Of a stretch of DNA of 64,000 bases, positions 39,945-59,900 are shown piece by piece; position 1 is the first letter of the stretch, and every line of letters starts with the position of its first letter. The DNA lies in NCBI RefSeq assembly GCF_011045215.1, contig NZ_CP049201.1. One strand, given 5' to 3'. Below the pieces are notes generated by a model. It did not search any database. It had not been told where the DNA came from and worked only from the letters and a program-made list of their open reading frames with translations. A program made the position numbers and the translations under genes. This stretch comes from Escherichia coli. GTDB taxonomy: Bacteria; Pseudomonadota; Gammaproteobacteria; Enterobacterales; Enterobacteriaceae.

Positions 39945-41732
<1,788 letters not shown>

Positions 41733-43846: not shown

Positions 43847-45662
43847 ATGAGATTACATAGTCTTAAAATAAAAGGATTTAAACGTATCCAAACTGCAAGA
43901 GATAATATTTGGTGATACCACGTTTCTCATTGGTGCTAATAATGCCGGTAAAAGTTCTGTTCTGAAGGCCGTTGAATGGCTGCTTTCAGATAAAAAGAAG
44001 ATGGATATTGACTTTTTTTATTGTGAATCTGATGAATCACGTGAAAATAAAATAGCAACTGAGTCAATTGTACTCGAGGCTGAATTCAGAAATGTACCGG
44101 AAGAGGCATTGCAATGGAGAGGTTTTAGGGGGAGGATATTTGAATATAATGCTGGAAATAGTGGGGAAACGGGAAAGTCTCTGATTTACAGGAAAACATA
44201 TGAACCGGGGAATGATGTTGTTATTGAATTGAAATCTTTTTCAAGAAAATTGAATACACGATTTGAAACCGCAGTCAGAGCATCTGACTTGGTAGAAGCT
44301 GGTGCTGATGCCGAAATCATCACTGAGTATTTTCCAGATCAAGCTAAAAGATTTAATGCAGCTGACAAAGAAAAATTAAAACTCATTGATGAATTATGGG
44401 ATATTTCTGATGATGAAGAAGTTTGGGATAAAAACCCGGGGGGAATTGCAGGTGTTGTGTTATCCCGATTACCTGCTTTTCTATTAATACCAGCAGAATC
44501 AGCTTCTCATGAAATTGACACAAAAGCGGGAGCTTTGCAGAAAACGCTGAATGAACTATTCAAAGATGTTCGTGGCAATTCAGAAAATTATAGAAAGGCC
44601 CAGGAGTCTCTGAATGCGCTTGCGAAGGAATTAGATCCTGCAGATGAAACGTCAGAATTTGGTGTGATGATGGGAGAACTTAACAGTGTATTAAGCGGAG
44701 TTTTTCCAGAGTCAAAGATATATGCTACGGCTGATTTATCTGATCCTGATAATGTTCTCCTACCTTCATTTTCGGTTGAAATGTCGAGTAACATTAAAAC
44801 ATGTGTATCGAATCAAGGAACCGGAATGATTCGAGCAGCTGTATTTGGATTGTTGAGATTTCGGCAGCAATGGCTGAGAAAAAAAGGTAAGGATGATGCT
44901 GCTACCAGAAGTCTTATTATTGGATTTGAAGAACCAGAAATTTATTTACACCCTAGTGCAGCAAACCAGATGAGAGATTTGATTTATGAATTATCAGATG
45001 GACAGTCACAAATAATAGCGACAACACATTCACCTTATTTGATTGATTTGTCGAGAAAACCCCGACAGGTACTTAACCGATTCCATTATGATAATTCACA
45101 TACGACAGTCTACCCGCTCTCAGTGACAGAGAAATTTCTGGCCTTGCAGGATAATGATAAAGATCAGATAAAAATGCTGATTAAGCTGGATGATCATGTA
45201 TCAAGGATCTTTTTTACCCGAAAAGTTGTTGTTGTCGAGGGAGATACAGAGGAAGTCATTATCAAAGAAGCTATCCGCAGAATGCCAAAAGCAATGCGAA
45301 ATAAGTTGCTTGCATCAACAGAGCTGGTTAAAGCACGTGGCAAGGCTGCGATTATCGGCCTGGTGAAGTATCTTAGCGCGCTGGATGTTGATTTTTTTGT
45401 TATCCATGATCGTGATGGCGGAACTCCCGGTGCGGAGATCTTTAATGCGCCGATTGCTGCTGCTGTTGGGGATGCCAGCAAAGTTATCATGCTGGAAGAG
45501 TGTATTGAGGATCTGCTGGGGTACCCAGCTCCAAGTGGTGAAAAACCGTTTAAGGCGTATCAGGAAGCACAGCGCTGGGGAGATAACTGGAATGACGTGC
45601 CTGAACCATTAAGGAGAATACTGACTAGAGCTTTTTCCCCATTTATCGATTTGGCTGAATGA
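43847..45662 (+). pseudogene. OLD-family ATP-dependent endonuclease (ABC-type ATPase plus Toprim), N-terminal frameshift as given
   Basis: ATG at 43847 encodes MRLHSLKIKGFKRIQTARDNI then TGA at 43913; shifting frame at 43908..43913 gives FGDTTFLIGANNAGKSSVLKAVEWLL (Walker A) continuous with the 44001..45662 ORF; downstream TTHSPYLIDLS and Toprim-like VVVVEGDTEE...FFVIHDRDGG. Confidence 0.75.
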
Positions 45663-48555: not shown

Positions 48556-48816
48556 AATTTCCGCTGGTATAACAAACAGGGTTATGGATATTCTCGTTTA
48601 TGTGGAACATTCAGTTTGTATCGGAACTGGTAAGAACCTGACAGTTACATTCCCAATGTTTTATGGGGCTTCGGGGATATATATAATAGTTTATTGATAC
48701 ATGTTCTGTAGTTATACTGCGTATTCCGCTCTATTCGATCACGGATTTGCATCGAAGTCCGATCAGCGATTCGCATACTTTCGATCAACCGGGAACTTAA
48801 CTTTTTCTACCGCTTT

Positions 48817-49572
48817 TTAACTCGTTTTTTCGATGCTTTCCACTACCGGGGGGTTTTTCCTCAGGGACTCTCCCTGAAGGACCAGTCTGTGTGAGTTATG
48901 TACCAGTCTGTCCAGGATGGCATCTGCTGTTGTTGGGTTCTCCATCAGACCATGCCATTTATCTACCGGGAACTGGCTTACCACTATCGTGCTGCTTTGA
49001 CCGTAACGATCTTCTATGAGCTCCAGAAGGTCATTACACTGGGCGTTACTTAACTGTTCCAGCCCCAGATCGTCCAGGATTAGAACCTGTATTTTTTGCA
49101 ACTGTTTCAGATATTTCAGCCAGCTGCCATCAACACGTCCCTGAGCCAGTTGTTCCAGTAATCGCCCGGTTCTACAGTACCGGACGCTGTGTTTCTGTCG
49201 ACATGCCTGTTCGCCCAGCGCATTGGCTATCCAGCTCTTGCCACATCCTGTCGGACCGGTTATCAGCAGGTTTTTCCTGTGGGTTATGTAGTGGCCGTTC
49301 AGCAGTTCCCTCATCTGTTCAGCCCGCAGACCTCTTGAGGCCGGATAGCGCAGCCCTTCCGGTGTTGCCTGATATTTCAGGCCGGCATTTTTTCTCAACC
49401 GTGCCACACGGCTGTTTTCCCTGCTCAGAAGCTCGTCATCAACCAGCAGCGTCAGCCTTTCCTCGAACGACAGTTCGTCGTAGGTCTGAGGCGTTTCCCG
49501 CTGCCGTATCAGGCTCCCGGCCATCGCCGGGAGTTTCAGTTGGGTCAGTTTGTTTAACAGATTATCACTCAT
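48817..49572 (-). CDS. istB: IS21 helper ATPase IstB
   Basis: Start at ATG giving MSDNLLNKLTQ; Walker A GPTGCGKS and Walker B VLILDDLG; the ORF-track N-terminal extension is judged spurious. Confidence 0.85.
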   Translation of the reverse strand: MSDNLLNKLTQLKLPAMAGSLIRQRETPQTYDELSFEERLTLLVDDELLSRENSRVARLRKNAGLKYQATPEGLRYPASRGLRAEQMRELLNGHYITHRKNLLITGPTGCGKSWIANALGEQACRQKHSVRYCRTGRLLEQLAQGRVDGSWLKYLKQLQKIQVLILDDLGLEQLSNAQCNDLLELIEDRYGQSSTIVVSQFPVDKWHGLMENPTTADAILDRLVHNSHRLVLQGESLRKNPPVVESIEKTS

Positions 49573-49588
49573 TCGGTTGTTCCTTCTG

Positions 49589-51235
49589 TCAGTGGTAGTA
49601 GCCAGGACCACGCAGGTTTTCATGCTCTGAAGCATATGCCGGATGTTGTTCGCCCTGGCGGGATAACGGAAGCTCAACGTTATCCCGATGATGACGCAGC
49701 AGATTGTCGATAAAGCGTCTGTCCGGGGCGTTATAGTGCAGGGCAACGTAACAGGCCTTTTCCAGCCGTTCCGGGCCGTATTTTTTCTGAAGTGCCAGCA
49801 GACCCAGGACTGCACGGTAAGCCAGCTCCGGATGGGGTTTGGCTTTCAGCATGGATTCAACCACCCGGCCTGTGGACGGACCTGTACGGTTTCCCTGCTC
49901 GATAAGGCGTTCCGGTGTCCATGTCCCATGCCGCCGGTGGCGTTCTGGCATGTGAAGCGGATTGGTTGTGTGTTTATATTCATGTGTGCTGCGCGGATGT
50001 TGCGCCACACACTGCCCCTTGTGCCAGAGTTGTACCACCGACTGCCCCGCCTTCAGTGACAGACGCTGACCGACCAGTTCGTGTGGAACGGAGTACCAGT
50101 GACGGGCATATTCAACGTGATAGTCAGGGCCAACCTTCACGGCTTTGTATTCCGTGTATTCATAAGGTGCCAGAGGCAGCGGAGAGAGTGCTGGCGCATC
50201 CAGTATGCGGAAGCGTTCTGCACGGGTTTGATTGCCGTACCCCTTCATTGGCCGGTTATTCATGTCTGTCAGTAACTCCCGAAGGCGCGCATTCAGCGCC
50301 CTGAGCGTGTGGAAGGTTTCATTACGGATGCGGGCAAGAAGCCATCGTTCGACGATGAGGACGCCGTTTTCTGCTTTTGGTTTATCTTTAGGTTTGCGTG
50401 GTCGGGCCGGGATAATAACCGTGCCATAGTGCTCAGCCAGCGCCTGATAACTGTCGTTGATGACAGGCTCATAGCGATCGGCTTTTTTCACTGCGCTTCT
50501 GAGGTTATCGGGGATGAGCAGCTTCGGTACGCCGCCCAGGAAGGTCAGGCAACGGCTGTGGGCATTTAACCATGACATCATGTCCTGACCTTCGCACGCT
50601 TCAACATAGGTATAGTTGGACGCCCCCATTACAGCCACGAAGATTGCCACGCGGCGTATCTCTCCGGTGTCCGGATTAATAACAGGGACCGTAGGACCAC
50701 AGAAGTCGATAAAGAGCTTTTCGCCAGCACGATGCTCCTGTCGCATGGAGAGGCGTCGCGTTTTTTTCCACTTCCGGTAGCAACGGCAGAAGTGTGAGTA
50801 TCCCATCGCTTTGTCACCCGCCTGTGCCTTGTATTCCATCCACAACAGTTGGCGCGTCACGCCAGGTTTTCTCATTTCCGTATCGAAGTACAGCATGTCA
50901 GGCATAACAAGCTCCGACGCAGAGGTGTCTTTGGGCGGGTAAATGAGTTTCTCCAGCGTGTCATGGGATATATCAGCAGGTAATGGCCATGACAGAGAAG
51001 AGGCTTTGAAGCGTGCAAGAACCTCAAAAACGGTTGAGGCGCTGATGTGTAATGTCAGCCCGATACAACGGTTAGTCAGCTTCTGGTCGAACTTGAGCTG
51101 AAGGATCTTAAAACAGGTTTCCATAGTGCTCCTGGATTTTCTCTTTCTGGACATTGCCGTCTCCATTGGTTTAAACACGGCAATGAAGACTGTGGCGAAA
51201 AGAGTTAATTCCCGGAGTGACTGGCAGGATGCCAA
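49589..51235 (-). CDS. istA: IS21 transposase IstA
   Basis: 548-aa ORF upstream of and adjacent to istB; start codon uncertain within the first 40 codons. Confidence 0.85.
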   Translation of the reverse strand: MASCQSLRELTLFATVFIAVFKPMETAMSRKRKSRSTMETCFKILQLKFDQKLTNRCIGLTLHISASTVFEVLARFKASSLSWPLPADISHDTLEKLIYPPKDTSASELVMPDMLYFDTEMRKPGVTRQLLWMEYKAQAGDKAMGYSHFCRCYRKWKKTRRLSMRQEHRAGEKLFIDFCGPTVPVINPDTGEIRRVAIFVAVMGASNYTYVEACEGQDMMSWLNAHSRCLTFLGGVPKLLIPDNLRSAVKKADRYEPVINDSYQALAEHYGTVIIPARPRKPKDKPKAENGVLIVERWLLARIRNETFHTLRALNARLRELLTDMNNRPMKGYGNQTRAERFRILDAPALSPLPLAPYEYTEYKAVKVGPDYHVEYARHWYSVPHELVGQRLSLKAGQSVVQLWHKGQCVAQHPRSTHEYKHTTNPLHMPERHRRHGTWTPERLIEQGNRTGPSTGRVVESMLKAKPHPELAYRAVLGLLALQKKYGPERLEKACYVALHYNAPDRRFIDNLLRHHRDNVELPLSRQGEQHPAYASEHENLRGPGYYH

Positions 51236-51327
51236 TCAATGATCGGAAGCGTGCCAAATCGTGATCGATTGTGATGCCAAACTGTGATCGGAGATGGATG
51301 CCAAATCATGATCGATTCGAATGCCAA

Positions 51328-52817
51328 CATACCCTTACCCACAAGTTTTCTGGGCTATTTCTATGGCATTAATTGACAGCATTAATTGTGTTAATCCTGA
51401 CCATATAGTCTTAGGGCCTGGAGGCGAATCATTTTTTCTTGCCAGATATCCTCCTAATCTTGCAAGCATTAAAACCGCCGTTCTTATATTCGGTATGTTT
51501 TCAGGTGGAGGCGTATTCTCTACCAATATCCAGAGATACTCATATTCTTTCTTTTCGAAAATTAAATCACAGGGTTCCTCCGGAACCATTTTATACAATG
51601 AGCTAAGATAAAGTATTCTCCATGAGATTATAAGGTATAAGGCCAGACAGTTCCTTGTGCGTTCAAATGTCTCAAGTTGTAATTTCTCAACCTGACATCC
51701 GCTTTTTAATACCTTAAAGAAAACTTCAATCTGCCAGCGTAATAAATACCATTGAATAAGCTGTGCGGGTTCCGTCAGCTTTTCTGGAGGTACACTACTC
51801 ATTAGCCACCATACTAATGGCTGGACACTTTCTGGAGCATTTATTTCCTTTGCAAGTAATACAGTTACCGTTACCGGAGAACAACGTAACTTTCCTCTTC
51901 GACCGGTGGGTGGATGTAGCGTCAACCTTGCTAAGCGTAGCTCCTGCTGGACTTTGCGGGAAGGTTGTCCTCGTCCTTCCGGAAGGGTAAACTCAATTAT
52001 CTGCTGTGGCAAAATCTGCATCATTTTTTCATTCAGGAGTAATGAGTCTCTTTTTCCTGATGAATTCAGTATAGCCCGGTTAATGCTCTTCATTCTTACG
52101 AGCCAGTCAGCCTTTATCCCACTTTCATTTTCTGCACTCTCAAAGAGGTCGTAAATATCACCTTCACGGTCTGAAACAGAAATTATCTGGGTATCAGGAC
52201 AGGACCTAGCCAGTTCTGTTGCTTTTTTATATCCTTCTATCCACCGTCCTGTTTCTTTCTCACTGATATGTTTCCTGTGAAGTGAATCATTAGTTATTTC
52301 TTTACGACTTTGTTTCTGAGTTTTGAGTTCTTTTCTGAACCATTGATAATCATCATAAACCCCTAAGCAAATACCTGAATCACTTATAACCAATTGAGGG
52401 TGAATAAACAAATCTCGCTCATTTTCATGTCGTCTGGGACCGACGCCCTGTTTCTTTTTTTGACCAGAATAATTTAGTTCAGTCGTATCCTGTAAAACCA
52501 GAGCCCGTTTAAACTGTTTAGTCCTTTCGATGATATTTTTCTTATGGGGAGCCATGATTTTATCGGCTGAAATTTTATCACTGGAAAAGCAACGATAAGC
52601 AGCTTTTGTCTCACTCCAGGTACGGCAGGATACGGGAATACTTTCCTTTGGTGAACGGCTAAGCACACTGAGAACGTGCTTTATTCGCTTTTCGAGCCTG
52701 ATATCACCAACATTCAGAGATTCCAGCTCCTTAATAACCCAGTTTTCCATAGTTCCTCTAAATTATGGTTAATTTATCAACAGAATAACATCACTCGGAT
52801 TTATGGGTAAGGATATG
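51328..52817 (-). mobile_element. IS4-family (IS50-like) insertion sequence, copy B
   Basis: Inverted duplicate of 440..1929 with the same 14-bp terminal repeats and the same 9-bp flanking repeat (GAATGCCAA on this strand at 51319..51327 and 52818..52826). Confidence 0.75.
51335..52750 (-). CDS. IS4-family transposase (identical to 507..1922)
   Basis: Identical 471-aa translation to the copy at 507..1922. Confidence 0.85.
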   Translation of the reverse strand: MENWVIKELESLNVGDIRLEKRIKHVLSVLSRSPKESIPVSCRTWSETKAAYRCFSSDKISADKIMAPHKKNIIERTKQFKRALVLQDTTELNYSGQKKKQGVGPRRHENERDLFIHPQLVISDSGICLGVYDDYQWFRKELKTQKQSRKEITNDSLHRKHISEKETGRWIEGYKKATELARSCPDTQIISVSDREGDIYDLFESAENESGIKADWLVRMKSINRAILNSSGKRDSLLLNEKMMQILPQQIIEFTLPEGRGQPSRKVQQELRLARLTLHPPTGRRGKLRCSPVTVTVLLAKEINAPESVQPLVWWLMSSVPPEKLTEPAQLIQWYLLRWQIEVFFKVLKSGCQVEKLQLETFERTRNCLALYLIISWRILYLSSLYKMVPEEPCDLIFEKKEYEYLWILVENTPPPENIPNIRTAVLMLARLGGYLARKNDSPPGPKTIWSGLTQLMLSINAIEIAQKTCG

Positions 52818-53658
52818 GAATGCCAAACCGTGATCGATTCAGATGCCATTTTGCAGTTATACACTATTGAGTATTATATTGTTATGAAAATATCTGTACT
52901 TATGGAATATTTAATTCTGATGATGGGGCTCTGGTTTGTTGTATGGTTAATTACGGACTGGTTACCTCATATCTGACGGAAAGTGGTATCAGTGTGTATT
53001 CGCATTGACCGGACATCGACATATAACGAATTACGTTCCGGACAAAACTCTCCTGCAGGAAAGGGTAACATTGTATTTTAAACATATTATTCAACCAGTC
53101 ATAAGCATAAACCGACCGCCGTATGTAGCCATTAAGCCAGTATTGGTAACGAAGATACCCACCTTTTCAAAAAGGAAGTGGATAAAAGATAACGAAAATG
53201 CGAAGAGTTGATTAATACATTGAAACAAAATTCATTAATGATGAACTTGGAGAAAAGCTCCATCAAAATACGACACGACCTGTCGTAATTTGTGTTAGCC
53301 AGGAAAGAATATCTACTACTCACTAAAATGATTTAGTGCTGAAAATATTTACAAGCCAATAAATTGACTGGTATTACGGAGTAACGCCCAGGCTATGTTA
53401 ACGAACCCGCTGTTTTATTGGCTCAAAAAACATATCCCAGAGATGTTCAGCCATACCCTCGTTAGTGAGCAAGGTATCCCCTTAGTAGCCAGGGCTGAAG
53501 ATGCCCATTGATGGGCGAAAACCAAGGATCTGGCCGTTAGAACAGTTATGTCGTTAAACACATCACCACCATATGCCATCCGGTTCACTTCGTCGGCCAA
53601 ATTAGTGTGATATTCTTTCCAGAAATGCTGTTGTATCCACGACATAAGGCGATGATTG

Positions 53659-56600
53659 ATGGAGCAGTCTCTCAATTTTGAAATGTTGCGCAGCCAGTGG
53701 CCGGAACTGGCTGAACTCGCGTGTATGGCGGAACGCTATGTTCACTCCGATCCGGAAAGCTGTCTGGTCAAGCTGCGCAACTACACCGAATTGATGGTGC
53801 GCTGGTTGTATCGTCAGGAGCGGTTGCCGGAAGGTATTAAGGCTAATCTTTACGATTTAATGAATGCTGATGTCTTTACCAGCATGATGCCGGAAGCCAT
53901 CATCATGAAAATGGATGCGCTGCGTATCCATGGCAACCGTGCCGCGCACGGCGGACATATCAAAGCTAAAGATACTTACTGGCTGCTCAAAGAAGCGTAT
54001 TTGTTGGGAATTTGGCTGTATGTTCGCTACGCCCACGGTAATGTTGATGACTGCCCCAAATTTACACTCCCTCCATTAACACAATCTTCAGGTCGTGCAG
54101 ATGAAAAACGTCTGGAAGATGCAATCAGGGCTCAGGATGAAAGCCGTGAGCGCGAACTGGCGCTGCAACGCGCACTACAGCAAGAACAGGAAAAGGCCGA
54201 ACACCTCACTCAACGCCTGAATGAAGCCAGAGCGCGTAACCAGCATGTTGCCGATATTCTCTCTATTGATGAAGCGGAAACCCGCCGTCGCCTGATTGAC
54301 TCTCGCCTGCTTGCTGCTGACTGGAATGTAGGCGAAGACCTTAAAAATACCGATCAGGTTACGCAGGAACATCCCGTTAAAGAACAACCTACCGCGACCG
54401 GAGACGGTTATGCGGACTATGTCTTGTGGGATGAGGCACACAAACCGCTGGCGGTGGTGGAAGCAAAAAAAACCAGCGTCAATGCCGAGCAAGGACGAAT
54501 TCAGGCCCGGCTGTATGCAGACTGGCTGGAAAAAGAATACGGCCAGCGTCCGATCATCTTCTACACCAACGGCTATGATATCTGGCTGTGGGATGACCAT
54601 AAAACTCATGGTTATCCCCCGCGTCGGGTGTTTGGCTTCTACAGCAAGGAAAGCCTGCAATATCTTATTCAACAGCGTGAAACCCGTCTGCCGCTGAACA
54701 ATGTGCTGCACGTAAAGGATAACGAAGGTAAGGCCGTTGCCGGACGTTTGTACCAGCTTGAAACCATTGCTCGTGTCAGCGAACGGTTTACCAATAAATA
54801 TCGTCAGTCATTAATCGTTCAGGCCACCGGCACCGGTAAAACCCGTGTAGCGATTACACTGAGCAAACTGATGATAGATGCCCGCTGGGTAAAACGCGTC
54901 CTGTTTCTTTGTGACCGCAAGGAATTACGTAAACAGGCGGCGAATGCCTTTAATCAATTCACCAATGAGCCGCTGTATGTAGTTGGAAAATCGAAAAAAG
55001 CAGACAGGCAGAACGCCAGGATCTACATCGCCACCTATCCAGGCATGATGAAAATCATGGACCATTTCGATGTCGGTTATTTCGATTTGATCATCGCCGA
55101 TGAATCCCACCGCTCTATCTACAACGTCTACGGCGATCTGTTTAAGTATTTTGATGCCCTCCAGATTGGCCTGACGGCCACGCCGATTGACATGGTAAGT
55201 AAAACCACTTTCGGCCTGTTTGGTTGTGAAGGACGTATTCCTACCGCCAACTACAGCCTGGAAGATGCCATCGCCGATAACAATCTGGTTCCCTATGAGG
55301 TTGTCACGCACACCACAGAATTCCTGCGGGAAGGCATCAAACGGGAGAAATTAAGCGACGCACAAATCCGCGAGCTGGAAGAACAAGGCATAGATCCCAA
55401 TACGCTGGAGTTTGATGGCAAGGTGCTGGATGAGGCGATCTACAACAAAGACACCAACCGCTATATCCTGCGTAACCTGATGGAAAATGGCCTGAAAGAT
55501 CGGGACGGCCAGTTGCCAGGTAAAACCATCATTTTCGCCCGTAACCACAAACACGCGCTGCTGTTGAATGAATTGTTCGACGATATGTACCCACAGTTTG
55601 CCGGGCGCTTCTGCTAGGTCATCGACAATTACGATCCCCGTGCCGAGCAACTGATTGATGATTTTAAAGGGCTGGATGAAAGCACCAACAAAGAGCTGAC
55701 CATCGCTATCTCCGTTGACATGCTCGATACCGGTATTGATGTCCCGGAAATTGTGAATCTGGTCTTTGCCAAACCGGTCAAATCAAAAGTGAAGTTCTGG
55801 CAGATGATTGGCCGTGGTACGCGCCTCTGTCCGGGGTTGTACGGTTACGACGATAACGGCAAGCCGCTGGATAAACAGAAATTCCGCATTTTCGATCACT
55901 GGGGCAATTTTGAGTATCACGAACTGCATACCGAAGAGGCCGAAGTCACAGCGACAAAATCGCTTGCACAAAAACGCTTCGAAGCGTGGGTTATGCTGGG
56001 GGCCGCTGCGCAACGTAAATTCGACAAACAGGCGGTGGATTTAGTTGCTCACCAGCTTCGCGAGCAAATCAACGCACTGGATGAAAAGTCGATTGCCGTA
56101 CAGGAAAAGTGGCAGCAAAAAGCGCAGTACAGTGATGCAAAGGTGCTGCGCCAGCTTTCTCCGAAAACACAGCAGGATCTGCTATCTGTTCTGGCCCCGC
56201 TGATGCAGTGGCTGGACGTACGCGGGCAAAGCGATGCCATACGCTTTGATATGGATATTCTGGCGGCGCAAACTGCCCGTTATACCAACCCGGAAGAGCT
56301 GGATGTGCTCTGGCCGGTCATCGTCGAAAAAGTGGAGCGCCTGCCGTCGCATTTGGCGCAGGTGCAACAGCAGGGACAGCGAATCAATCAGCTTCGTGAT
56401 TTGGGCTGGTGGAAGCAAGCCAGTCTGGAAGAGCTGGAGGATATCCGCATTCATTTGCGCGGTATCATGCACCTGATGGAAAAAGACGCGACGCCGAAAT
56501 TTGGTTCTATACAGGTGGATATTACCGAAGATGCGAACCTGATCCAGACGGAAACCCGCAAAACCAACATTCGCTCGATTGATTTCAAACTCTATCGCCA

Positions 56601-57072
56601 GCAGGTTCAGGGGGCACTGGAGCCGCTGTTCCAGCAAAATCCGGTGCTGAAGAAAATCCGCAACGGCGAGCCAGTCACGCAAAACGAGCTGGATGAACTG
56701 GCGAAGCTGGTGCTGATCCAGAACCCCAACGTTGATATCCGGGCACTGAAAGAGTTCTATCCGCAGGCAACCGCCAGCCTGGATAAACTTTTGCGTACCA
56801 TCATCGGGATGGACAGCGACGCGGTGGAAGTGCGCTTTGCTCAGTTCGCCGCTGATAACAGTCTGACCAGCCAACAACTGCGCTTCCTGTCATTGCTGAA
56901 AAACCACATTCGCGATTACGGCACCATTGAAATGCGGCAGCTCTTTGAACAGCCTTTTACGCATATCCACAACGAAGGCGTTACCGGTGTGTTCCCTGAT
57001 ATAGAGCAGATCGCCCGCCTGCAAAAGATAGTCGAAGAGCTGGGTGTTGTGACCGACGTAGCGACGGTATAA
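53659..57072 (+). pseudogene. hsdR: Type I restriction enzyme R subunit HsdR, interrupted by an in-frame TAG at 55615..55617
   Basis: ORFs 53656..55617 and 55720..57072 are in the same frame and the codons between them read on as HsdR (VIDNYDPRAEQLIDDFKGLDE...); helicase motifs QATGTGKT (Walker A), DESH, FWQMIGRGTRL present; likely a CAG to TAG change. Confidence 0.8.
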
Positions 57073-57135
57073 TACGCACATGACAAGCCCCGGCAGCGGG
57101 GCTTTTGTATTTAAAACAGGATATAAAAGCTAACA

Positions 57136-58770
57136 ATGATCACTGGTGACTTAAAAAGTAAAATCAACGGCCTGTGGGAAGATTTCTGGGTGGGTGGTAT
57201 CACCAACCCGCTGACCGTAATCGAACAGATCACCTATCTGATGTATTCCCGGATGCTGGATACCCAGGAACAACGCGACGAGAAGCGTAAACAAATCGCG
57301 GGAATTGATTTTAAACCGCGTTTTGCGCCAGAACAGCAGGAGTTCCGTTTCAGTCACTATAGCAATCTTGGCTCGGATGAGATGATGGAAGTGGTGCGCG
57401 ATGGCGTATTCCAGCATTTTCGTCAGCTCGGCCAGGCCGATGCGTCGAAGGTGACGCTGCTGGGCAACTTTATGAAAGATGCTCGTCTGGAGATTGTTAA
57501 GCCGTCATTACTGACCAAAGCGGTTGAGGTGATCAAAAACCTGCCGCTGGATCGTGGCGACACCAAAGGCGACCTTTACGAATACCTGTTAAGCAAGCTG
57601 ACCACTGCCGGAATCAACGGTCAGTTCCGCACGCCGCGCCACATTATCCGCACGATGGTTGAAATGATGGAGCCGAACCCGGCCCGCGGCGAGACGATTT
57701 GTGATCCCGCCTGTGGCACCGGTGGTTTTCTGGCAACCAGCTATGAATATCTTCTGGAGAAGTACAGCTCGCTGGAATCCATCCATACTGAGATTGGCAC
57801 CAACGAACGTGGCGAGCTGGAAGAGCAAAAAATCTTTACCGGCGATCTGCTGACACCGTGGCGTAACCATGTAGATAACAATATGTTCCACGGTTACGAT
57901 TTTGATACCACCATGCTGCGTATCGCCGCCATGAACCTGATTATGCACGGTGTGGAAGCGCCGGATATTCACTATCAGGACACCATGAGCCAGAGCTTCA
58001 GCACTAACTTCCCTCAGGCCAGTAAAAACGCTTTCAATCTGATTCTGGCGAACCCGCCTTTTACCGGTTCACTGGACGAGGAAGATATCGACTCCACGCT
58101 GTCGGCAATGGTGAAAACCAAAAAAACCGAACTGCTGTTCCTGGCGCGTATTCTGCAAATGCTGAAAGTGGGCGGGCGCAGTGCCACTATCGTGCCGCAG
58201 GGCGTGCTGTTTGGCTCCAGCAAGGCGCACCAGTTACTTCGCAAAACGCTGGTGGAAGATAACCAACTGGAAGCGGTGATCAATCTGCCTTCTGGTGTAT
58301 TTAAACCTTACGCTGGCGTGGCGACGGCGATCCTGATCTTTACCAAAGGCGGTCAAACGGATGAGGTCTGGTTCTACGATCTACAAAATGACGGCTACAG
58401 CCTGGATGATAAGCGCAACCCGATAAAAGACAACGATCTGCCGCATCTGCTGGCAAGCTGGAAGCATTACCGTACTTTACGCGGGCTACCGGTTGATAAC
58501 TTTATGGGTGAGAAGTTAGCCTCGTTGCTTAAACAGCAGTACCCGGAAGGGATTGATGCTGGCGTTGATTTTAAAGATCGCACGCAGGCGGCGTTTGTTG
58601 TACCGAAAGCGGATATTGCTGCGCAGAAATACGATCTCTCTATCAATCGTTATAAAGAGGTGGTGTATCAGGCGGAGGAATATGAAGATCCGAAGGTGAT
58701 ACTAAAGCGCTTAAAAGATTTGGAAAAAGAAATTCTGGCGGATCTGGATGAGCTGGAGGGGATGCTGTGA
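57136..58770 (+). CDS. hsdM: Type I R-M N6-adenine DNA methyltransferase HsdM
   Basis: 544 aa; catalytic NPPF motif ([11 protein letters not shown]), AdoMet-binding region [11 protein letters not shown]. Confidence 0.9.
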
Positions 58771-59894
58771 GTTCGGCGATGGTGAAGTTAGGGGATGTTA
58801 TTAATGTTCACTACGGAAAAGCATTAAAAGCTGATCAGCGAGTATCGAATGGAAGTGTCCATGTTTTTGGTAGTTCAGGAATTGTCGGCAACCACGATAA
58901 AACGCTTTGCAGCTATCCCACGATAATTATTGGCCGCAAAGGCAGCGTTGGTGCTATTACCTGGGCTCCTGACGGAGGTTGGATCATTGATACTGCTTAT
59001 TACGTTGAGATCAAAGATAATAATAAGTTAGATCTCCGATACTTGTTTTATATTCTGAGCGGAATTGATCTCACTAAGAAAACGATTACCACAAGTATTC
59101 CTGGATTAAATAGAGACGATCTCTATGATACATTTATTAAATTACCACCTTTTGAAGAGCAGAAACGAATTGTGGATCTTCTCGATAAAGCTGAGGGTAT
59201 ACGCCAAAAACGTGAGCAATCCATCAAACTGGCTGATGATTTTTTGCGTGCTACGTTTTTAGAGATGTTTGGTGACCCTGTTGAAAATCCCAAAAAATTA
59301 AAAAAATCCCCCATTACTGAATTGGCAGATGTCATTACAGGTTTTGCATTCAAAAGTAATGAGTACATTAATGATTCGTCTGAAGCGGTACGGCTTTGCA
59401 GAGGGGCAAATACGCTTACGGGATATTTAGATTGGGCTGATACAAAATTCTGGACAAAAAACAAACTGGAAAAACTAGATAATTATTTAATTAAGGCAGG
59501 TGATATTATCCTCGCTATGGACCGTCCGTGGATATCAAGCGGGTTAAAAGTATGCATATTCCCTGAAAATCAGCGAGAAACGTACTTAGTTCAGCGAGTA
59601 GCTAGGTTACGACCTCGTTGCGAATCTTACACAAACTATATTTACAGTTGTATTAAATCGCCAGCTTTCGAAAAGCATTGCTGCCCAACAGAAACAACGG
59701 TGCCACATATATCTCCTGTTGAACTTAAAAATTTTGAAGTTCTAATTCCGCCCGACGAACTTATGGTTAATTTTCATTCGATTGTATCAATAATCAACAA
59801 TAGCTTAAATAAAATGGCATCAGGCGATATTGATAGCGACGCCCTCTTCTCTAAGTTAAGTCAGCAGGCTTTTTCAGGACATCTTAAGAGGTAA
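58767..59894 (+). CDS. hsdS: Type I R-M specificity subunit HsdS
   Basis: 375 aa, GTG start overlapping the hsdM stop; two target-recognition halves separated by conserved central helix (LPPFEEQKRIVDLLDKA) and C-terminal conserved LSQQAFSGHL; AT-rich. Confidence 0.85.
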   Translation: MSSAMVKLGDVINVHYGKALKADQRVSNGSVHVFGSSGIVGNHDKTLCSYPTIIIGRKGSVGAITWAPDGGWIIDTAYYVEIKDNNKLDLRYLFYILSGIDLTKKTITTSIPGLNRDDLYDTFIKLPPFEEQKRIVDLLDKAEGIRQKREQSIKLADDFLRATFLEMFGDPVENPKKLKKSPITELADVITGFAFKSNEYINDSSEAVRLCRGANTLTGYLDWADTKFWTKNKLEKLDNYLIKAGDIILAMDRPWISSGLKVCIFPENQRETYLVQRVARLRPRCESYTNYIYSCIKSPAFEKHCCPTETTVPHISPVELKNFEVLIPPDELMVNFHSIVSIINNSLNKMASGDIDSDALFSKLSQQAFSGHLKR

Positions 59895-59900
59895 GTACAT

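Follow-up and report, generated by a model that had tools for sequence, protein, structure and literature searches.

In a 64,000-nucleotide stretch of the Escherichia coli contig NZ_CP049201.1 (hereafter, the window), we found that the restriction gene of an island-borne type I restriction-modification system is interrupted by a single in-frame amber codon. The genes of this system stand in the order hsdR-hsdM-hsdS, and gene content, motifs, and profiles all place it in type I, with the three linked genes matching the PADLOC models REase_I, MTase_I, and Specificity_I. We hold with good confidence that the stop is a genuine, inherited nonsense mutation (Q653*) that leaves the system restriction-deficient, with hsdM and hsdS intact and their target probably methylated.

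hsdR lies at positions 53659 to 57072 on the plus strand and comprises 1137 codons; a lone TAG at 55615 to 55617 leaves 652 codons on one side and 484 on the other, in the same frame. The initial annotation had described two HsdR reading frames separated by this codon alone, and its coordinates proved exact: in the open reading frame listing and in translation, the frames at 53656 (or 53659) to 55617 and at 55720 to 57072 are the same, and translation of 53656 to 57072 meets one internal stop, in the context MYPQFAGRFC*VIDNYDPRAEQL, with downstream residues starting VIDNYDP. Against the 1107-position PADLOC REase_I model (PDLC03047), the upstream piece aligned to profile positions 6 to 636 (E = 4e-175) and the downstream piece to positions 646 to 1099 (E = 9e-92). 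Since the two matches cover a single HsdR profile contiguously, the pieces are one gene and not a chance juxtaposition. Once the stop was replaced by Gln, the repaired protein showed a single Pfam architecture (DUF4145, residues 24 to 111; HSDR_N, 147 to 316; ResIII, 363 to 510; Helicase_C, 620 to 722; EcoEI_R_C, 979 to 1121), which together with the profile tiling bears out the earlier claim that the codons after the stop continue the HsdR sequence. Full-length orthologues of 1137 amino acids are common: the gene is present at a coverage of at least 80% in 412 of 5426 complete E. coli genomes, and the upstream fragment falls in a 90% cluster whose 2685 members span Escherichia, Salmonella, Citrobacter, Enterobacter, Klebsiella, and Lonsdalea. 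In RefSeq, the orthologous R subunit is labeled merely "DEAD/DEAH box helicase family protein." Contiguous profile coverage and the existence of these orthologues ruled out two separate genes with a boundary at the TAG, and phase variation was ruled out by the lack of a simple repeat near it.

Codon 653 is CAG (Gln) in all relatives examined outside the lineage, comprising nine of nine orthologous genes from E. coli, Lonsdalea, and Salmonella (91.8 to 99.6% nucleotide identity), and Q653 is present in each of the 14 full-length cluster members that were read. A single C-to-T transition at position 55615 thus accounts for the stop, as the initial annotation had guessed. The same allele recurs in other assemblies. 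A contig in the Logan read-based assembly of SRR11014969, a run from which the window's assembly may also have been made, is 100% identical to window positions 52829 to 64000 (11,172 nucleotides [nt]), TAG included, and truncated HsdR products of 652 and 450 amino acids are on record from that assembly. The NCBI draft genome GCA_036881245.1 carries a contig (JBAJZH010000050.1, recorded in six samples) with 100% identity over the same positions, again with the TAG; NCBI lists no protein over hsdR in this draft, which fits a pseudogene call. Among complete RefSeq E. coli genomes, none of the 396 that matched was identical across a 121-nt segment spanning the stop. Given the shared frame, an orthologous sense codon one change away, and the presence of the stop in other assemblies, the TAG is a nonsense mutation and not a gene boundary, as had been proposed from the sequence alone, and it is a real mutation inherited in a clone. 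The transition at 55615 turned Gln653 into an amber codon, and the allele has been passed on within the clone.

The position of the stop determines what the truncated protein loses. The 5' fragment (53659 to 55617, plus strand; 652 codons followed by the premature TAG) encodes DUF4145, the PD-(D/E)xK nuclease (D253...E268-x-K270), the first RecA-like domain (motif I, GTGKT, at residue 391; motif II, DESH, at 481; motif III, TATP, at 506), and the start of the second RecA-like domain. Alignments to the Vibrio vulnificus HsdR structure 3H1T and to EcoKI HsdR placed codon 653 inside that second domain, past the motif IV region (KTIIFARNHKHA) and ahead of motifs V (DMLDTGIDVP) and VI (QMIGRGTR, at 715). 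The 3' part (55618 to 57072, plus strand; 484 codons) holds these two motifs followed by the helical region and, at the C-terminus, EcoEI_R_C; it is untranslated barring readthrough. Thus, the nuclease, motifs I to VI, and the assembly domain that orthologues carry on one uninterrupted HsdR polypeptide are all encoded here but split at 653, and the 652-amino-acid product retains the nuclease and the first RecA-like domain. In EcoKI and EcoR124I, ATP hydrolysis requires motor motifs V and VI, and HsdR needs its C-terminal part to bind the methyltransferase. By analogy with these enzymes, the truncated protein would not dock on the methyltransferase, and it is predicted neither to hydrolyze ATP nor to translocate DNA. 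Translation ending in the second RecA-like domain would leave the cell restriction-deficient. Because the product is missing the C-terminal domain and the helical region as well as half of the motor, loss of restriction is expected, and we regard it as very likely.

In contrast to hsdR, both remaining genes of the system are whole. hsdM (57136 to 58770, plus strand) encodes a full-length N6-adenine methyltransferase of 544 amino acids that matches the PADLOC MTase_I model PDLC03021 end to end (E = 3e-191) and keeps the S-adenosylmethionine-binding motif DPACGTGGF at residue 190 and the catalytic motif NPPF at 306. hsdS (58767 to 59894, plus strand; 375 amino acids) encodes two target-recognition domains, recognized as Methylase_S domains at residues 5 to 154 and 175 to 331, with PADLOC Specificity_I matches at E values of 1e-58 to 8e-112. 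Neither gene contains a stop or a frameshift, and RefSeq annotates their orthologues as type I M and S subunits. The closest intact operons, L007 (ERR10854092) and L009 (GCA_009766725.1), carry all four genes and are ∼99.75% identical to the window across 11.15 kb; their codon 653 is CAG, and their hsdS is the same in length and allele. Relative to these, HsdM differs solely by D11N, which is derived in the window, and HsdS differs solely at residue 189, where the window holds the ancestral residue. The earlier statement that hsdM and hsdS appear intact is thus upheld. Separately, hsdS is a chimera of target-recognition domains, its first half resembling strains such as D2 (97%) and its second half CU42ET-1 and Eco_24-2013 (97%); sister draft genomes share this combination, which was not found in any complete RefSeq E. 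coli genome.

It is well established from type I genetics that the M2S1 complex methylates without HsdR, such that HsdR loss ends cleavage and not methylation. HsdM and HsdS would here form an M2S1 methyltransferase, and its bipartite target would probably stay methylated. The combined restriction-deficient, modification-proficient (r- m+) phenotype is a prediction that draws on these textbook genetics and on a natural precedent in Mycoplasma agalactiae, and continued methylation strikes us as probable, somewhat less firmly so than the loss of restriction.

Several observations weigh against continued methylation, and the alternative that fares best is that the whole system is dead (r- m-), its operon being a decaying remnant in which polarity on hsdMS or an impairing HsdM D11N has silenced the methyltransferase. 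Hairpin structure takes up most of the 63 nt separating hsdR from hsdM (62-nt gap region, about -18.6 kcal/mol; z = -3.2). The terminator-like, GC-rich hairpin, with a T-tract after it, sits at 57085 to 57104 on the plus strand, only 32 nt ahead of the hsdM start codon, and a promoter scan found no sigma-70-type promoter for hsdM. If hsdMS relies on read-through from the hsdR promoter, the 1.45 kb of hsdR left untranslated could reduce its expression through Rho-dependent polarity. Changes polarized with sister and outgroup alleles point in the same direction: 8 of the 11 derived substitutions in the operon alter protein (HsdR A400T and Q653*, HsdM D11N, and five in the helicase gene that follows hsdS, R465P among them), and the whole operon, methylase included, could be free of selection. 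Losses elsewhere fit this reading too: hsdM of sister strains was lost to a group II intron, and defense genes just past the window end are split in this lineage (L006) but intact in a Salmonella locus (L020).

Nonetheless, we judge a fully dead system to be unlikely. hsdM and hsdS have kept their catalytic motifs and open frames, as described above. The hairpin after hsdR, whose stem is conserved among E. coli, Salmonella, and Lonsdalea with a loop that varies in Lonsdalea, would also fit a separate hsdM transcription unit. The last ∼45 nt of hsdR (from ∼57028) are invariant across five alleles from these three genera that otherwise differ by 2 to 8%, and they include a perfect TATAAT at 57068 to 57073 that overlaps the hsdR stop codon. 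This invariant end hints at an embedded hsdM promoter and is a candidate regulatory region for hsdMS. One specific arrangement, TTGTGA-15 nt-TATAAT, was seen by eye as a possible sigma-70 promoter for hsdM; it is weak and was set aside, the scan having returned none. As for the substitutions, their high nonsynonymous fraction fits relaxed constraint and is suggestive at most, as recent within-clone divergence gives the same pattern; such a fraction is usual in very recent divergence of this kind, which counts against a dead operon. Possible polarity on hsdMS, the derived HsdM D11N, and damage to the fourth gene all lie outside what the initial annotation had covered, as do the fourth gene itself and the disruptions in sister strains described below.

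A far less probable alternative to an r- m+ cell is that the stop is bypassed, by an amber suppressor tRNA, by UAG readthrough, or by a split enzyme restarted at an internal codon. Here, a supE-type suppressor that inserts Gln would yield exact wild-type HsdR, the ancestral codon being CAG, and the first in-frame ATG, GTG, or TTG past the stop is an ATG only 34 codons downstream, at 55720. However, no tRNA gene, and hence no suppressor tRNA, was found within the 64-kb window, and to our knowledge amber suppressors are laboratory alleles that are untypical of wild E. coli. The ATG at 55720 has no Shine-Dalgarno-like sequence ahead of it by inspection, and a restart there would begin within motif V and break the second RecA-like domain; reinitiation to give a split HsdR was set aside on these grounds. 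HsdR A400T and the helicase changes further suggest that constraint was already relaxed. Equally improbable is a sequencing or assembly error, with a true C at 55615 and an intact hsdR: a one-base substitution is the smallest possible artifact, but the position, which the initial annotation had itself singled out as the point on which its reading could fail, is T in two other assemblies, one built directly from reads and one with its contig in six samples, and the lineage's exact variant of the fourth-gene helicase stands under four NCBI protein accessions, which makes a one-off error of base calling or polishing very unlikely.

The operon also contains a fourth gene. This gene (59901 to 63182, plus strand) begins 6 nt after hsdS and encodes a 1093-amino-acid superfamily 2 (SF2) helicase with Pfam ResIII/DEAD and Helicase_C domains and a C-terminal nuclease-like motif (D955...H972-x-K974). 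The family is large, with 873 representative clusters at E ≤ 1e-30, and comparison with the PADLOC and NCBIfam models gave no family match past weak motor-domain similarity. Across a 63-sequence alignment, the C-terminus has an invariant set of residues (D948, E952, D955, H972, K974, and Q994), which in an AlphaFold model (predicted local distance difference test score, 88) lie on an alpha-beta-beta-beta-alpha unit; this modeled arrangement resembles a PD-(D/E)xK nuclease. Foldseek searches with the whole protein returned SF2 motors only (XPB, RadD, Mfd, LlaBIII, and SauUSI), with the C-terminal domains unmatched. The protein is like Hna, a single-protein anti-phage system composed of an SF2 helicase and a PD-(D/E)xK nuclease, in architecture only and in occurring as a stand-alone gene in defense-type contexts. 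It differs from Hna by an extra N-terminal beta-rich domain of ∼130 amino acids and a middle region of ∼450 amino acids, and sequence and fold searches of the PDB retrieved generic SF2 motors and no Hna entry.

We also asked whether the helicase is an obligate partner of the type I genes. This was ruled out by homologues that stand alone on Acinetobacter, Agrobacterium, and Klebsiella plasmids, and it is countered as well by the other genes that fill the position after hsdS; homologues adjoin type I genes in Vibrio p337 and Lonsdalea. For distant homologues, the metagenome contigs that carry them were too short to reveal their gene neighborhood. A 99.9% identical copy of the gene is carried by the 214-kb plasmid of E. 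coli C5 (NZ_CP010123.1, 202805 to 206083), a strain whose chromosomal cargo slot holds a PIN-domain gene.

On the window lineage, the helicase gene has acquired five derived substitutions, all five protein-changing: A18V, A40V, R465P, P542L, and Y886H. R465P (nt 61294) replaces the last Arg of SF2 motif VI (Q458-x-x-G461-R462-x-x-R465). Residue 465 is Arg in all 62 aligned homologues (∼30 to 46% identity) and Pro in the window alone, and residue 542 is Pro in 55 of the 62. Judged from this conservation, R465P is a probable second knockout in the operon. A broader interpretation, which we offer only tentatively and consider doubtful, is that the clone may have disarmed both ATP-dependent nuclease motors flanking hsdM-hsdS (by Q653* and R465P) and kept the methyltransferase as an orphan epigenetic or protective enzyme, the 1093-amino-acid protein then representing an uncharacterized single-gene defense family that occupies the cargo slot 3' of hsdS in Enterobacteriaceae and stands alone on plasmids.

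Near-identical copies of the hsd module have been disabled in at least five separate ways, and the events in sister strains are independent of the window lineage. In E. coli C5 (locus L001; 99.5% nucleotide identity in hsdR), codon 14 is a stop (W14*, TGG to TGA, at L001 10099 to 10101), and the annotated hsdR start lies later. In loci L008 and L010 (99.56% in hsdR), hsdR is intact and hsdM is split by a 2.4-kb opposite-strand group II intron at the equivalent of window position 58043/58044. Two copies at ∼96% identity show structural changes: L021 (SRR1106389) has transposon DNA in place of the 5' 1.87 kb of hsdR but retains hsdM and hsdS, and L023 carries a small rearrangement at the equivalent of window positions 55508 to 55576. 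Given these separate disruptions across copies, natural HsdR loss with the methylase kept is common in this family.

The position 3' of hsdS likewise varies among loci. Where the window has the helicase gene, C5 has a gene for a PIN-domain protein, M22546 an AAA ATPase, Salmonella a 355-amino-acid uncharacterized protein without a Pfam match, and SRR1106389 an AAA_15/AAA_21 ATPase (slot positions: window 59895 onward; L001 16340 to 17744; L002 16352 to 17881; L020 12243 to 13310; L021 10334 to 12852). As judged by these gene contents, the position behaves like a variable cargo slot for defense-type genes.

The surrounding island shows further signs of mobility and decay. An IS21-family insertion sequence (IS) element with istA and istB on the minus strand lies at 48718 to 52855, with TG...CA ends and a 7- to 8-bp target duplication (GTTATAC); the insertion lies ∼800 nt upstream of hsdR, and neither C5 nor the intact sister loci have it. 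Nested within it, in its terminal repeats, is an IS4-family element (51328 to 52817) with a 9-bp duplication, GAATGCCAA. A promoter-like site directed toward hsdR at 52850 to 52877 has a -35 element, TTTGCA, that coincides with the terminal six bases of the IS21-family element, and a -10 element, TATTAT, in the flank; it may be an IS-created hybrid promoter. Just past the window end, at L006 12270 to 14159, a 5'-nucleotidase gene is split into pieces of 211 and 94 amino acids and a ScoMcrA-like gene (phosphorothioate-DNA-binding domain plus HNH) into pieces of 128 and 138 amino acids. Both genes are single and intact at Salmonella L020 13428 to 15346, and thus the island shows further decay in this lineage. 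Upstream, at 39945 to 41732 and 44001 to 45662, defense-type genes lie amid VasL/ImpA type VI secretion remnants; these are a NERD plus UvrD-like helicase, for which PADLOC candidate C3a187 gave an end-to-end match (E = 2.5e-141), and an OLD-family ATPase/nuclease-like protein that matches Old (E = 1.7e-50).

An hsdR nonsense mutation of this kind is an ordinary, textbook route to restriction loss, and the finding leaves the current understanding of type I systems unchanged. It is a concrete case for the view that mobile islands often lose restriction subunits and keep methylases. The clone is predicted to admit incoming phage and plasmid DNA more readily, and its type I N6-methyladenine (m6A) motif is predicted to persist without a restriction partner; both points bear on methylome interpretation, the choice of transformable hosts, and gene-transfer potential. 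Mildly interesting beyond this are the probable R465P knockout in an uncharacterized helicase/nuclease-like gene and the repeated, independent disruptions of the module.

Among known type I systems, the window system resembles EcoKI in its gene order, hsdR-hsdM-hsdS, and in an HsdR layout that aligns from residue 1 through motif VI. However, it belongs to another type I family, lies on a mobile island, and has a variable cargo gene after hsdS. Membership in type IA, the EcoKI family, was ruled out by identities of 26% (HsdR) and 28% (HsdM) and by NCBIfam NF008521 scores of 249.9 and 74.3 bits against a cutoff of 729. Type IB (EcoAI/EcoEI) was ruled out by NCBIfam NF046051 scores of 185.7 and 35.9 bits against a cutoff of 550, the EcoEI_R_C Pfam domain being the sole shared item. 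Type IC (EcoR124I) was ruled out as well, with only HsdR residues 384 to 549 matching 2W00 (E = 1.5e-7). The best solved relative is the V. vulnificus HsdR fragment 3H1T (E = 3e-30), which covers the nuclease and the two RecA-like domains and aligns to residues 200 to 724; the relationship is remote, and the structure is without the DUF4145 N-terminus and the C-terminal half.

With respect to phenotype, the same logic applies as in EcoKI hsdR mutants, the r- m+ laboratory strains in which HsdR loss stops cleavage and not methylation by M2S1, but the window allele is natural and not laboratory-made. A closer natural parallel is Mycoplasma agalactiae PG2, in which a premature stop in mid-hsdR leaves HsdM and HsdS still methylating, and whose authors concluded that HsdR is dispensable for type I methylation (PMC9465063). 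In that strain, the gain of 2 nt in a poly(A) tract produces the stop, which is perhaps phase variable (PMC9465063). In contrast, the stop in the window is a point substitution without a nearby repeat and is for that reason not readily reversible.

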